A stretch of 64,000 nucleotides of DNA from a phage. The stretch lies in sequence record PZ452579.1; one strand, written 5' to 3'. This document shows positions 60,516 to 64,000 of this stretch, one piece after another; position 1 is the stretch's first letter, and the number at the start of each line of letters is the position of its first letter. Under the pieces are notes generated by a model. The model ran no database searches. It had not been told where the DNA came from and saw only the letters and a program-made list of their open reading frames with translations. The position numbers were made by a program, and so were the translations under genes.

Positions 60516-60540
60516 ATTCTATCATCCGAAATCTAAAGCA
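60516..60540 (-). promoter_or_regulatory. MotA-dependent middle promoter for gene 39
   Basis: Minus strand TGCTTTA - 12 nt - TAGAAT, then GAGGAG RBS. Confidence 0.5.
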
Positions 60541-60556
60541 AAAAGGGCCGAAGCCC
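60541..60556 (-). terminator. UUCG-tetraloop hairpin terminator upstream of the gene 39 promoter
   Basis: gggc cgaa gccc; minus RNA hairpin followed by UUUU. Confidence 0.55.
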
Positions 60557-60982
60557 TTATTTAAATTTAATTTTCTGAAGTGCATCAATTGCAGCCAAAC
60601 GCCCTTGTTCACTTTTAACTGTAATGACTACATCGCCTGATACGATCACCGAACCATCAACAAATTCTATAGAGCCTTTTTTGAAATCGACAGCTGTATC
60701 TGGTTCCGGAACTTCTTCAAAGAATTTAAATTCTGCACCATAAAGCAGAATATCACCTTGCATACTATGAATAGTTCGGCCGTAATCGCCTACGGCTTCT
60801 ACAGCAATAATCGAAACGCCGTAACCAATCATCTCTTCCACAATAAAATCTTTGGACAATAAAGTAGTATGCAGATTAGTATTAAGACGTTTACCAGTCG
60901 TATTAAGAATTCTCAAGAAATTATCTTCCTGTCCTTTGATAATACGATATTTCTTACCAACTTCAAAACCTTTAAAAGCCAT
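60557..60982 (-). CDS. Hypothetical protein (39.1/39.2 position)
   Basis: 141-aa ORF. Confidence 0.6.
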   Translation of the reverse strand: MAFKGFEVGKKYRIIKGQEDNFLRILNTTGKRLNTNLHTTLLSKDFIVEEMIGYGVSIIAVEAVGDYGRTIHSMQGDILLYGAEFKFFEEVPEPDTAVDFKKGSIEFVDGSVIVSGDVVITVKSEQGRLAAIDALQKIKFK

Positions 60983-60984
60983 AA

Positions 60985-61164
60985 TTAACCCTTCTTAAGT
61001 AAGTCGTAAAAACCACCGTTCACATGTTTAGGAGCAGAAACCCGACGAGTAGACAGACGATGACATTCAGGGCAAACATCGTTTTCTCGTTCAGAAATTC
61101 TTTTAATTTTTTCATATTCATGACCACAATCTTCAGATTGGCATTTATAGTCGTATAACGGCAT
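60985..61164 (-). CDS. FmdB-type zinc-ribbon protein (59 aa); absent from track
   Basis: Manual translation MPLYDYKCQSEDCGHEYEKIKRISERENDVCPECHRLSTRRVSAPKHVNGGFYDLLKKG with two CxxC pairs. Confidence 0.6.
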   Translation of the reverse strand: MPLYDYKCQSEDCGHEYEKIKRISERENDVCPECHRLSTRRVSAPKHVNGGFYDLLKKG

Positions 61165-61166
61165 TA

Positions 61167-61595
61167 TTATTCCTTAAAATGTGCTTTCAACATTTGATAC
61201 AAAGACCATGCCTGGTCATTATTTTTGATAGTAATCGTCATCACAGGAAATTCAGACAATTCATCAAGTTCACCAGAATCTTGCTCTTCGGACGCTTGAT
61301 ACGGATTTCCAACTTCGTCAAAGAACTCTGCTTCATTCGTGGAAAGCCAGATAAAGTTTTCATCAAGGATATCACCGCCTGTTGCGTATCCAACCATGCC
61401 AGTAGATGTCACAATTTTAGTAGGACGTCCAAGATGGTCAACATCTAATACTTTAAATGGTTCCATGCCAAGACGTCGTGCATAAATCCCATTATCAGTG
61501 TGGTCTTTAATAAACTCTTCTTGGGCACGTTTATCTTTAAATTGGTACCATGAGTTAACGCGGAATTTATTAGCCATTAGTAAGTTTCCTTCCAA
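61167..61595 (-). CDS. Hypothetical protein (goF/comC-alpha position)
   Basis: 142-aa ORF; T4 goF is 141 aa at the equivalent position; identity not verified. Confidence 0.5.
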
Positions 61596-61849
61596 TAAGT
61601 TGTACCGTTTTCAGTGATTTCACGGAAGATACCATAGATAGGCATTTCATCACCGAGTTTTTCGTAAACGTAAACCACTTCGGTGTAGCATAAAAATTCG
61701 GTCCAGTTTTTCTGTACAACAACTAAATCAGGATTAAACAGAACATCTTCAAACTCATCGATGTTTGAATCAGTAGTTACGTTTTTAATGATTTGACGTT
61801 TCATAATATTCTCCTCTTGTTTTGATAGGTCTATAGTATCATAGACCAT
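61577..61849 (-). CDS. Hypothetical protein
   Basis: 90-aa ORF with AGGAG RBS and early promoter upstream. Confidence 0.55.
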
Positions 61850-61862
61850 AGTTGTTGTACAT
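61833..61862 (-). promoter_or_regulatory. T4-type early promoter (minus) with ggtctat/atagacc inverted repeat (PeSL-like)
   Basis: + strand ggtctatagtatcatagacc ... tgtacat. Confidence 0.45.
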
Positions 61863-62386
61863 CATTTTAGCAAAATAAAATCAACTTGTTCTGCCAATGA
61901 ACGTCTGAACATTAATTGACAACTTCCGAGGATGAAATCAGGTGCTTCATAGACCGCGATGTAGTATCCTTTAGCTTTCAAGAGTTCAACATCCACCTGG
62001 TCATCAAACCATGCATAAACCGCGTCAACACTTTCAAATCCAAAATAGAACCCTTGAGCCCAATCTTCACTCAATTCAAATGTATGCTCAATTCTATAGT
62101 ATCTTAAGATATTTTGTTCAAGGAGTTTGTCTTCATTTACTGTAGGACGATTAGGGACATTATAGTTGTCGCCGTGATGGTAGAAGTTACCTGAGAGTAT
62201 TCCATGCTTATCAAGGAACTCCCATGTTTCTTCAGAGTTGTCGGTGCCCGACCAACCGTATGGCGAACGAGGTTCTTTATTCCAAGAGGTTTCCCAAATT
62301 CTGACGGCTTTACCGTCTTCGATAGCAATTCCTGGTAATGATTCACGTTGAGTACAAAAACTACGTTCTACGCGGTAAACTAACAT
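61862..62386 (-). CDS. Hypothetical protein
   Basis: 174-aa ORF. Confidence 0.6.
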   Translation of the reverse strand: MLVYRVERSFCTQRESLPGIAIEDGKAVRIWETSWNKEPRSPYGWSGTDNSEETWEFLDKHGILSGNFYHHGDNYNVPNRPTVNEDKLLEQNILRYYRIEHTFELSEDWAQGFYFGFESVDAVYAWFDDQVDVELLKAKGYYIAVYEAPDFILGSCQLMFRRSLAEQVDFILLK

Positions 62387-62397
62387 ATTATTCTCCT

Positions 62398-62441
62398 CTG
62401 GTTGATATGGTTATAATATCAAAACCAGAGGAGAAGTAAAC
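62398..62441 (-). promoter_or_regulatory. T4-type early promoter with -10 in the loop of a perfect 13-bp stem (PeSL-like)
   Basis: ttctcctctggtt gatatggttataatatcaa aaccagaggagaa gtaaac; the stem includes the RBS complement. Confidence 0.6.
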
Positions 62442-62445
62442 AACT

Positions 62446-62865
62446 TTATGCGAAAGCAGCTGGGCTATATTTTTTAATTTGGAATTCAGGAACTACCATG
62501 AACTGTCCAGCGAAAACGATGTTATAAAGCTTAACACCATCTTCTACCCAACGGTCGCTAATAAATCCGGCGATTTGCTTAGTTTTCCACGGTGTTCCAT
62601 CAGTTGCCGCAGCAATAGTAAATTCATGGTCTTTTTCAACAGAAACTGATCTGCATAGTCCCCATTTGAACGCTTTTTCTTCTGGTTCAATGAATTGGCT
62701 TGAGACATAACCAATGTTACCATCAGCGTCACGAACTTTAACTTCGTTACGTCCAAAAACCGGATCACTCACAGAAAGAACTTCAACCAACTTCCCGGCA
62801 ACTTTAGAGCGAGAAGCAACGGATACATATACGTAATCACCTGTAGAGAGATTTACAATATTCAT
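62446..62865 (-). CDS. Paralog family member A (139 aa)
   Basis: Shares FKWGLC and GFISDRWVEDG.KLYNIVF.G.F.VV motifs with the next two ORFs. Confidence 0.65.
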   Translation of the reverse strand: MNIVNLSTGDYVYVSVASRSKVAGKLVEVLSVSDPVFGRNEVKVRDADGNIGYVSSQFIEPEEKAFKWGLCRSVSVEKDHEFTIAAATDGTPWKTKQIAGFISDRWVEDGVKLYNIVFAGQFMVVPEFQIKKYSPAAFA

Positions 62866-62874
62866 AATAATTCC

Positions 62875-63393
62875 TTAAGCTTTACGAGGAGACACGTAGC
62901 GAGTGATTTCAGATTCTTTAACAACTCGGAAGTCACCTAAGAATACGATATTGTATAACTTTTCACCATCTTCAACCCATTGGTCACTAATGAAGCCACA
63001 CATAGTATCAGTTTTGCTTGGATAACCGTATTCATCGATGAAGTCAAATTCTTTATCAGTCTGGAATTCAACACCTTTGCAAAGGGCCCATTTGAACTGT
63101 ACATTAGGTTCAGTAGAAGCAAAATGAGCGCTCACATGAGTTTCCAAGAATTTAGGACTTACGTAAGCGTACTGAGTTTCAGTTTTTCCAGAACTAGGAA
63201 TGATTCGAACTTTAACTTCTTTAACACGACCAGTACCATTAGTACGAAGTCCTACCACTTCAACTAGACGACCTGCAGCTTTAGAACGAGATGCAGACGA
63301 TACACGCTTAATTTCACCAATAGTAATCATAATTTCTCTCTCTTTGTTTAAATTGAATTCACTATACTCCATCCATCCTTGGATGTACAACAT
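62875..63393 (-). CDS. Paralog family member B (172 aa)
   Basis: FKWALCKGV and GFISDQWVEDGEKLYNIVFLGDFRVV motifs. Confidence 0.65.
   Translation of the reverse strand: MLYIQGWMEYSEFNLNKEREIMITIGEIKRVSSASRSKAAGRLVEVVGLRTNGTGRVKEVKVRIIPSSGKTETQYAYVSPKFLETHVSAHFASTEPNVQFKWALCKGVEFQTDKEFDFIDEYGYPSKTDTMCGFISDQWVEDGEKLYNIVFLGDFRVVKESEITRYVSPRKA
63361..63391 (-). promoter_or_regulatory. T4-type early promoter (minus), ccttgg subfamily
   Basis: + strand actatactccatccatccttggatgtacaa. Confidence 0.45.
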
Positions 63394-63887
63394 TAATTAA
63401 GGATATTAACCACAGCACTACGTGGAACTACACTAAAATCACCTGCATGAACAACGTTCAGAAGTTCAACACCGTCTTCAATCCACTGATCGGTTACCCA
63501 TCCACTCACTGGTCCTGCGAACGGACGTCGAATTGAAACAGCTTTACACAACAAATCAGTAGGCTCAATAGGCTTAATCAGAGTACCGTACATACAAGCG
63601 ATATCCATATCAATACAGATGTCTTTAACGGGTTCTACTTCTTCAATCAACAGTTCAAAGTCGGTGTTTGGAAGGGCGGTAGTAGAAATTGTACCGTATG
63701 AATTTTTAATTTCTAAGAATAACCAAGGGCCTTCAGCTTGTTTGATGAAGTTAACAATAGTGAAACTATTACCTTGAGTGGCGCCTAAAATTTCACAAAA
63801 CTTTTCATACGCTCGCACTGAAGCACCGTACCAGTTGATTTGTTTTTCGTCTTTCAGGATGTAAGTAGCCGTAGTATTGATATTCAT
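63393..63887 (-). CDS. Paralog family member C (164 aa); possibly MotB-like by position
   Basis: GWVTDQWIEDGVELLNVVHAGDFSVV motif; size close to T4 MotB (162 aa), identity not verified. Confidence 0.6.
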   Translation of the reverse strand: MNINTTATYILKDEKQINWYGASVRAYEKFCEILGATQGNSFTIVNFIKQAEGPWLFLEIKNSYGTISTTALPNTDFELLIEEVEPVKDICIDMDIACMYGTLIKPIEPTDLLCKAVSIRRPFAGPVSGWVTDQWIEDGVELLNVVHAGDFSVVPRSAVVNILN

Positions 63888-63918
63888 AATGTTTTTCCTG
63901 TTTGGTTAAGATAGAAAG

Positions 63919-63948
63919 ATTATACTCCAACCATCCTTGGTTGTAAAC
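63919..63948 (-). promoter_or_regulatory. T4-type early promoter (minus): -35 GTTTACA, -10 TATAAT
   Basis: + strand attata ctccaaccatccttggt tgtaaac. Confidence 0.55.
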
Positions 63949-64000
63949 TGGTTTTATCGCTGTTTTACACTTAACGGGTCAGGATTCTCAGGGACATCTT

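Follow-up and report, generated by a model that had tools for sequence, protein, structure and literature searches.

A probable motB.1-motB-motB early gene set of RB69 type in a T4-like phage

The 64,000-nucleotide (nt) stretch of phage DNA analysed here (PZ452579.1; hereafter, the window) carries three consecutive open reading frames (ORFs) on its minus strand, at 62446-62865 (139 amino acids, aa), 62875-63393 (172 aa as the longest ORF) and 63393-63887 (164 aa), as described in an initial annotation made from the sequence alone. We conclude that they form the motB.1-motB-second-motB early gene set of an RB69-like Mosigvirus, with a probability of about 0.8 for the explanation as a whole, function included. 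The family has been described before, as have the relationship of MotB and MotB.1 as paralogues and the presence of two motB genes in RB69-type phages. Patterson-West et al. (2021) divided 102 homologues from phages into two groups, MotB proper and MotB.1-type proteins, which have the C-terminal domain in common and differ at the N-terminus, and suggested that one of motB and motB.1 is a duplicate of the other; RB69 has two motB copies and one motB.1 (PMC7827196, section 3.2). The RB69 trio ORF010c, ORF011c and ORF012c comes from the same genus and has the same arrangement, and the annotations of relatives cite the RB69 ORFs. There is no difference of substance between that trio and the cluster, and the window represents another isolate of the same kind. 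The GenBank records of close relatives also label the genes MotB-like or MotB.1-like.

Three members of the MotB family

The middle gene is the motB orthologue (62875..63330, minus strand), with a product of 151 aa that scores 132.8 bits against Pfam PF17613 (motB; gathering cut-off 25 bits), matches PHROG 1671 ('MotB-like transcriptional regulator') with an E value of 7.6e-65 and is 48% identical to T4 MotB (NP_049626). Its MotB-type C-terminal domain (62878-63105, minus strand) is preceded by a basic KOW/SH3-like N-terminal domain and a linker. The last gene of the trio (62446..62865, minus strand) encodes a second full-length MotB paralogue of 139 aa, of the RB69 ORF010c type (PF17613, 76.3 bits; PHROG 1671, E 1.4e-51), which is about 38% identical to T4 MotB. 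Both proteins match PHROG 1671 and align with T4 MotB from end to end, and both have its two-domain build, a KOW/SH3-like N-terminal domain followed by a MotB-type C-terminal domain. This is the build of MotB proper ('Category 1' of PMC7827196), which the 164-aa protein does not have. In the second copy, the loops and the linker are shorter than in MotB. Unlike T4 MotB, it is devoid of the IIP..G..Q loop and of most of the linker, and it is not basic (isoelectric point, pI, of 5.8 versus 9.2). Orthologues with at least 80% identity to it occur in 208 phage records, and nearly all of its full-length homologues in our protein search are exactly 139 aa long.

The start of the middle gene differs from that of the longest ORF. 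A promoter-like site (63389-63361) sits inside the first 21 codons of the 172-aa reading. The ATG at 63393 has no Shine-Dalgarno sequence, and the ATG at 63330 is preceded by AGAGAGAGAAATT. In relatives, the upstream ATG lies 61 nt (NBG1) or 62 nt (pEK20) from the downstream one and is thus out of frame, and a 456-nt gene for the 151-aa form is annotated in PhAPEC2, SF and pEK20. Taken together, these observations place the middle gene at 62875-63330. We therefore reject the 172-aa reading that starts at 63393 as an over-extension, while the sizes first given for the other two products, 139 and 164 aa, stand.

The gene transcribed first (63393..63887, minus strand) is the motB.1 orthologue. 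Its product is matched over residues 1-164 by PHROG 2333 (E 8.8e-83), the MotB.1 family ('Category 2' of PMC7827196), and contains the PTDLL, GWV.DQW and ELLNVVH motifs that are invariant in it; PF17613 matches residues 85-159 with 35.8 bits. Over 99% of its length, the product shares 47% identity with the 143-aa MotB.1 of T4-type phages (P0011). The two have the same N- and C-terminal domains, with PTDLLCKAV and GWVTDQWIEDGVELLNVVHAG.(F/Y)SVVPRSAV, but the linker of the window protein is extended by an insert of 21 residues with a DMDIACMYGTLIKP peptide that is absent from the T4 protein. On the minus strand, its AlphaFold2 (AF2) model delimits a predicted LSm/SH3-like N-terminal domain (about 63639-63887) and a low-confidence linker with a D-x-D-I-x-x-M-Y peptide (about 63573-63638); the MotB.1-type C-terminal domain follows (63396-63572). 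An LSm-like fold, common to GoF and Frd.2, has been described for the N-terminal domain of MotB.1 (Kim et al. 2025, PMC12152347).

The relationships among the three proteins are of two kinds. The 139- and 172-aa sequences align over their full length, with 44% identity over 147 columns (E 1e-32, BLASTP with compositional adjustment). In contrast, the 164-aa protein aligns with them in its C-terminal part only (E 2e-11 with the 139-aa and 3e-10 with the 172-aa sequence). It is paralogous only over its last ~60-75 residues, and its N-terminal part is a different domain. The duplication and divergence initially proposed for the three genes thus holds for the motB pair and, as far as the 164-aa protein is concerned, for the C-terminal domain rather than for the gene as a whole. 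On the sequence evidence, the third gene is a product of domain shuffling, in which another N-terminal domain has been joined to the shared C-terminal domain, and not of simple whole-gene duplication. The C-terminal block noted at the outset, G(F/W)(I/V)(S/T)D(R/Q)W(V/I)EDG.(K/E)L(Y/L)N(I/V)V..G.F.VV, is indeed common to all three proteins, and the invariant columns of D.W.EDG..L.N.V..G...V include W, D, E, G, N and V. The FKW(A/G)LC motif is found in the 139- and 172-aa sequences but not in the 164-aa protein, where the aligned residues are TDLLCKAV; all that the three share there is L-C-(K/R)-x-V. MotB-type C-terminal domains also carry an insert of ~16 residues that MotB.1-type domains lack, and in the 139-aa model its position corresponds to the long first hairpin.

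A MotB.1-type C-terminal domain with 74-88% identity is found behind several kinds of N-terminal part, namely in LSm-like forms of 143-169 aa, proteins of ~180 aa, proteins of ~245-250 aa and KOW-type proteins. We searched 1.84 billion representative proteins with a profile of the C-terminal domain, seeking relatives beyond the known family. The search returned only 31 clusters at E <= 1e-3, including three long repetitive proteins that we take to be spurious. KOW-type N-termini are present in 16 of the 19 hits examined, and the other 3 are fragments or have a different N-terminal part. As KOW-type N-termini predominate, we infer that a KOW domain followed by the C-terminal domain is the basic architecture, and MotB.1 would have arisen from it by replacement of the N-terminal domain. 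The significant matches in a search of viral structure models were proteins of T4-like phages.

Codon alignments of five phages (the window, PhAPEC2, ime09, NBG1 and pEK20) contain no internal stops in the three genes. Median ratios of nonsynonymous to synonymous substitution rates (dN/dS) are 0.13 for the 164-aa, 0.24 for the 151-aa and 0.13 for the 139-aa gene, with a range of 0.05-0.31 and no pair above 0.31. These alignments indicate that all three genes are intact and under purifying selection. That the ORFs are not real genes and that their similarity reflects chance or low-complexity sequence, the latter being the outcome that the initial annotation had named as its own refutation, is hardly credible. 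The BLASTP E values of 1e-32 to 3e-10 were obtained with compositional correction, the three Pfam scores are above the cut-off, the frames are intact with low dN/dS, and orthologues are present in hundreds of phage genomes; together, these results refute it.

Genomic setting and transcription units

The 3.5 kb around the cluster are 98.8% identical to Escherichia phage vB_Eco_F27 and 96.7-98.5% identical to the other 24 records among the matches listed. The five relatives whose taxonomy was checked (PhAPEC2, NBG1, SF, mar005P1 and pEK20) belong to Mosigvirus, the RB69 group of T4-like phages. In the order of transcription on the minus strand, the genes are dexA, the 164-aa, 151-aa (172-aa as the longest ORF) and 139-aa genes, a 174-aa gene, cef, a goF-like gene, a 39.2-like zinc-ribbon gene, a 141-aa gene and the fused topoisomerase gene 39+60. 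This order is syntenic with the dexA-motB-cef region of T4, and matching annotations are found in the GenBank records of PhAPEC2, NBG1, mar005P1 and ime09. The motB genes thus lie where MotB proper is expected, in the early region between dexA and cef and in the same direction of transcription. As in T4, they are on the same strand and behind an early-type promoter-like site. The placement in the motB/cef region of T4 was therefore correct, because the genes are motB genes themselves, as the Pfam and PHROG matches, the synteny and the comparison with T4 all indicate. Unlike T4, however, the window phage has two tandem motB copies. The Tequatrovirus ime09 also has the motB and 139-aa pair in tandem, but there a 180-aa protein with a MotB.1-type C-terminal domain replaces MotB.1.

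Two early-type promoter-like sites were found in front of the cluster genes. The sigma-70-like site before motB.1 (63919..63947, minus strand) consists of TTTACA, 17 nt and TATAAT within GTTTACAACCAAGGATGGTTGGAGTATAAT and agrees with the consensus at 11 of 12 positions; both NBG1 and pEK20 have the identical sequence, and the NBG1 record annotates it as a promoter. Its presence is another difference from T4, in which motB.1 follows motB.2 after 10 nt. The site before the motB/139-aa pair (63361..63389, minus strand; TGTACA, 17 nt, TATAGT) agrees at 9 of 12 positions, and its -10 hexamer is TATAAT in pEK20. The spacers of the two sites are nearly identical, CCAAGGATGGTTGGAG for motB.1 and CCAAGGATGGATGGAG for motB. 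Early expression is predicted from these matches to strong sigma-70/T4-early-like sites. Our scan found no promoter-like site for the 139-aa gene, which starts 9 nt past the motB stop codon and has its own AAGGA Shine-Dalgarno sequence. This gene is probably co-transcribed with motB, and two apparent transcription units serve the three genes, instead of the separate early promoter for each gene that had been proposed. No MotA-box middle promoter was found in the cluster (60543-64000 scanned).

Predicted structures, charge and function

The AF2 model of the 139-aa protein (predicted local distance difference test, pLDDT, 85.9; predicted template modelling score 0.72) consists of two five-stranded barrels, residues 11-60 and 73-134, in both of which the last strand is preceded by a short helical turn. 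In the model of the 164-aa protein (pLDDT 78.5), the N-terminal domain (1-83) is followed by a low-confidence linker (86-104) and a C-terminal barrel (116-163), and its fold matches are Tudor, PWWP and BAH domains. The strand order in both models, b1-b4, a short 3-10 helix and b5, is SH3-like. No OB-fold protein was recognised in the top-60 fold-match lists of the 139- and 164-aa models, searched as whole models; in such whole-model searches, the OB fold predicted for the C-terminal domain by others (PMC7827196) was thus not reproduced. The models suggest tandem SH3/Tudor/KOW-like barrels rather than an OB fold, with the choice between SH3 and OB for the C-terminal domain addressed at the level of whole models. 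The likeness to the KOW domains of Spt5/NusG and to the tandem Tudor domains of 53BP1 is one of fold only, with 9-23% sequence identity and no detectable sequence homology. Searches of the Protein Data Bank by sequence, with the 172-aa protein and two profiles, found no solved relative and gave non-significant hits to the SH3 domain of Pex13 (E 1.4) and to staphylokinase (E 0.49). As for charge, the three proteins are strongly different. The 151-aa MotB has a pI of 8.5, with a net charge of +6 in the N-terminal half and -4 in the C-terminal domain; both halves of the 139-aa copy are about neutral (pI 5.8); and the 164-aa MotB.1 has a pI of 4.5 and a net charge of -9 overall. The C-terminal domains are thus acidic or neutral (net -4, 0 and -3).

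T4 MotB binds unmodified and glucosyl-hydroxymethylated DNA tightly and without sequence specificity. It up-regulates 75 host genes, about one third of which belong to the H-NS regulon, it is toxic in E. coli, and its gene doubles the burst size (PMC6070864, PMC7827196). Its co-purification with H-NS and StpA requires DNA, and the protein alters the H-NS footprint (PMC7827196). Compaction of host and phage DNA by T4 MotB is reported as well, as summarised in a review (PMC12449154). T7 gp5.5 and T4 Arn presumably address the same process, the relief of H-NS silencing (PMC7827196). However, they bind H-NS directly, whereas MotB is seen with H-NS only together with DNA, and they have no sequence or fold relationship with MotB.

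By homology with its T4 orthologue, the 151-aa MotB would be abundantly produced from the first minute of infection onwards and would bind double-stranded host and phage DNA without sequence preference. It would change how H-NS is seated on DNA, with de-repression of H-NS-silenced genes and DNA compaction as the outcome. The charge distribution suggests that DNA coating depends mainly on the basic N-terminal half, and that the conserved C-terminal barrel would rather serve all three proteins as a module for interaction or assembly. In this interpretation, the non-basic 139-aa copy and the strongly acidic MotB.1 would be specialised partners or modulators rather than redundant DNA coaters. The earlier suggestion of DNA-binding or host-takeover factors is thus borne out by homology, the proteins being MotB, a MotB-like protein and MotB.1.

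The published data on MotB.1 must be read with one peculiarity of the T4 reference in mind. The T4 reference motB.1 (NC_000866.4, 4292-4651, minus strand; compare window 63440-63528) has one extra G, ATTGGAAGAT versus ATTGAAGAT, so that translation stops after 119 aa (…DQWIGRWR*), immediately ahead of the conserved C-terminal block. The extra G is found only in AF158101.6 and NC_000866.4 and is absent from 13 other T4 records. A 143-aa MotB.1 is annotated in both T4 records that we opened, and 256 contigs are on record with the same protein. Kim et al. (2025) report a 13.8-kDa MotB.1 and cite NC_000866.4 and gene synthesis (PMC12152347). As 13.8 kDa is the mass of the 119-aa form, and given the source of the sequence, their negative results with MotB.1 may concern a truncated protein. 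More generally, MotB.1 assays built on the T4 reference may have tested a crippled protein.

Several points weigh against our interpretation of the cluster. The function assigned to the Mosigvirus proteins is carried over from T4 by homology, at 48% identity for the 151-aa and 38% for the 139-aa protein, and net charge is a weak guide to which MotB domain binds DNA. For the C-terminal domain of MotB, others have predicted a DNA-binding OB fold (PMC7827196). T4 with motB.1 deleted showed no phenotype, and an RNA reporter did not respond to MotB.1 (PMC12152347). Finally, the promoter scan as a whole is not enriched (12 sites versus 10.3 +/- 3.7 in shuffled sequences), so that the promoter calls are based on where the sites lie, how well they match and their conservation in relatives.

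Other functional readings have to be considered. All three proteins might be redundant non-specific DNA binders whose C-terminal domain is a nucleic-acid-binding OB fold, with the extra copies raising the dose. The HHpred-based prediction of a cold-shock-like OB fold speaks for this, as do the remark that DNA might be bound by either MotB domain (PMC7827196) and the fact that conservation within the family is highest in the C-terminal domain. We nevertheless regard it as unlikely, given the acidic or neutral C-terminal domains, the strongly negative charge of MotB.1 as a whole and the SH3-like strand order in both models; moreover, the divergence in charge of the 139-aa copy from MotB is ill-suited to a simple dosage role. 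The idea that MotB.1 acts on RNA through its LSm-like N-terminal domain, as an Hfq-type chaperone that shares only a structural module with MotB, is equally doubtful. The 164-aa protein is strongly acidic, no homo-oligomer model was obtained and MotB.1 left reporter RNA and protein levels unchanged (PMC12152347), although the protein used was apparently the truncated 119-aa reference form. More adventurously, one can speculate that the C-terminal barrel is a hetero-assembly module, through which the basic MotB, the near-neutral second MotB and the acidic MotB.1 co-assemble on DNA in a ratio that tunes nucleoid remodelling; across the T4-like phages, at least four different N-terminal 'heads' would have been combined with this module. 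We hold this elaboration to be quite improbable. DNA coating by MotB, with the other two proteins as partners or modulators, is the reading that we favour.

Neighbouring features, family variants and significance

The 174-aa neighbour (61862..62386, minus strand) is the homologue of T4 MotB.2, with 34% identity (E 2e-16) and a match to PHROG 1106. It has no PF17613 match, and we reject MotB.2 as a fourth paralogue. Among the T4 proteins that the initial annotation had put forward for comparison, MotB and MotB.1 are thus relatives of the three products, whereas MotB.2 stands outside the family. Its gene lies downstream of the motB genes in the window and upstream of motB in T4. A promoter-like site with the -10 hexamer TATTAT precedes the 174-aa gene (62413..62440, minus strand), and a strong hairpin is found between this gene and the 139-aa gene (62391..62435, minus strand; folding free energy -24.6 kcal/mol, z -5.8). 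The 5' arm of the hairpin overlaps the -35 hexamer and the spacer, its loop contains the TATTAT hexamer and its 3' arm contains the GAGGAG Shine-Dalgarno sequence of the 174-aa gene. The hairpin is kept in NBG1 and pEK20, with one mismatch in pEK20. From this arrangement, transcripts that read through from the motB operon would hide the ribosome-binding site of the 174-aa gene, and those that start at the internal promoter would not.

Further downstream, a 141-aa (60557-60982) and a 142-aa protein (61167-61595), both encoded on the minus strand, flank the 39.2-like zinc-ribbon gene. Both match PHROG 622 (E 1.5e-21 and 9.4e-39, respectively) and GoF-type PHROGs, and the region thus holds a second pair of paralogues, of the GoF/LSm-like family. 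The 141-aa protein has an additional weak match to the MotB.1 family, PHROG 2333. Just upstream of the fused topoisomerase gene 39+60, there are a perfect MotA-box match (TTTGCTTTA; 60534-60542, minus strand) and a terminator-like hairpin (60543-60558). MotA-box matches are enriched across the whole window, with 23 found and 9.7 expected.

The family varies in several other ways. The peptide D-M-D-I-A-C-M-Y (window 63588-63611), residues 93-100 of the 164-aa protein, lies in the low-confidence linker. D-x-D-(I/V)-x-x-M-Y recurs just before MotB.1-type C-terminal domains, or at the N-terminus, across otherwise different architectures, and is absent from the 143-aa T4-type MotB.1; it may be a short linear interaction motif. 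In NBG1, the motB linker (locus L004, 1180-1260) is 14 residues longer and contains a repeated FASS(E/D) segment, which indicates that close relatives can differ freely in the length of the linker. Metagenomic contigs were also found with a single hybrid motB, whose front half is motB-like and whose back half is of the 139-aa type, with the joint at FKW or DQWVEDG (L010, 1373-1894; L011, 3001-3492; L012, 2199-2690; L013, 37-528). The L010 hybrid is the only motB gene between a gene for a 181-aa MotB.1-type protein and cef, and the other three loci show one side each of this arrangement. Judged by their sequences, these hybrids are consistent with recombination between tandem copies.

The discovery value of this work is small, as the genes have already been described and annotated. 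Its annotation value lies in the start of the middle gene and in the transcription units as given here. To the published picture it adds the models of SH3/Tudor/KOW-like barrels, the strong differences in charge (pI 8.5, 5.8 and 4.5) and the frameshift in the T4 reference motB.1. The sharp charge differences among the three proteins make the cluster a natural test of which MotB domain binds DNA.

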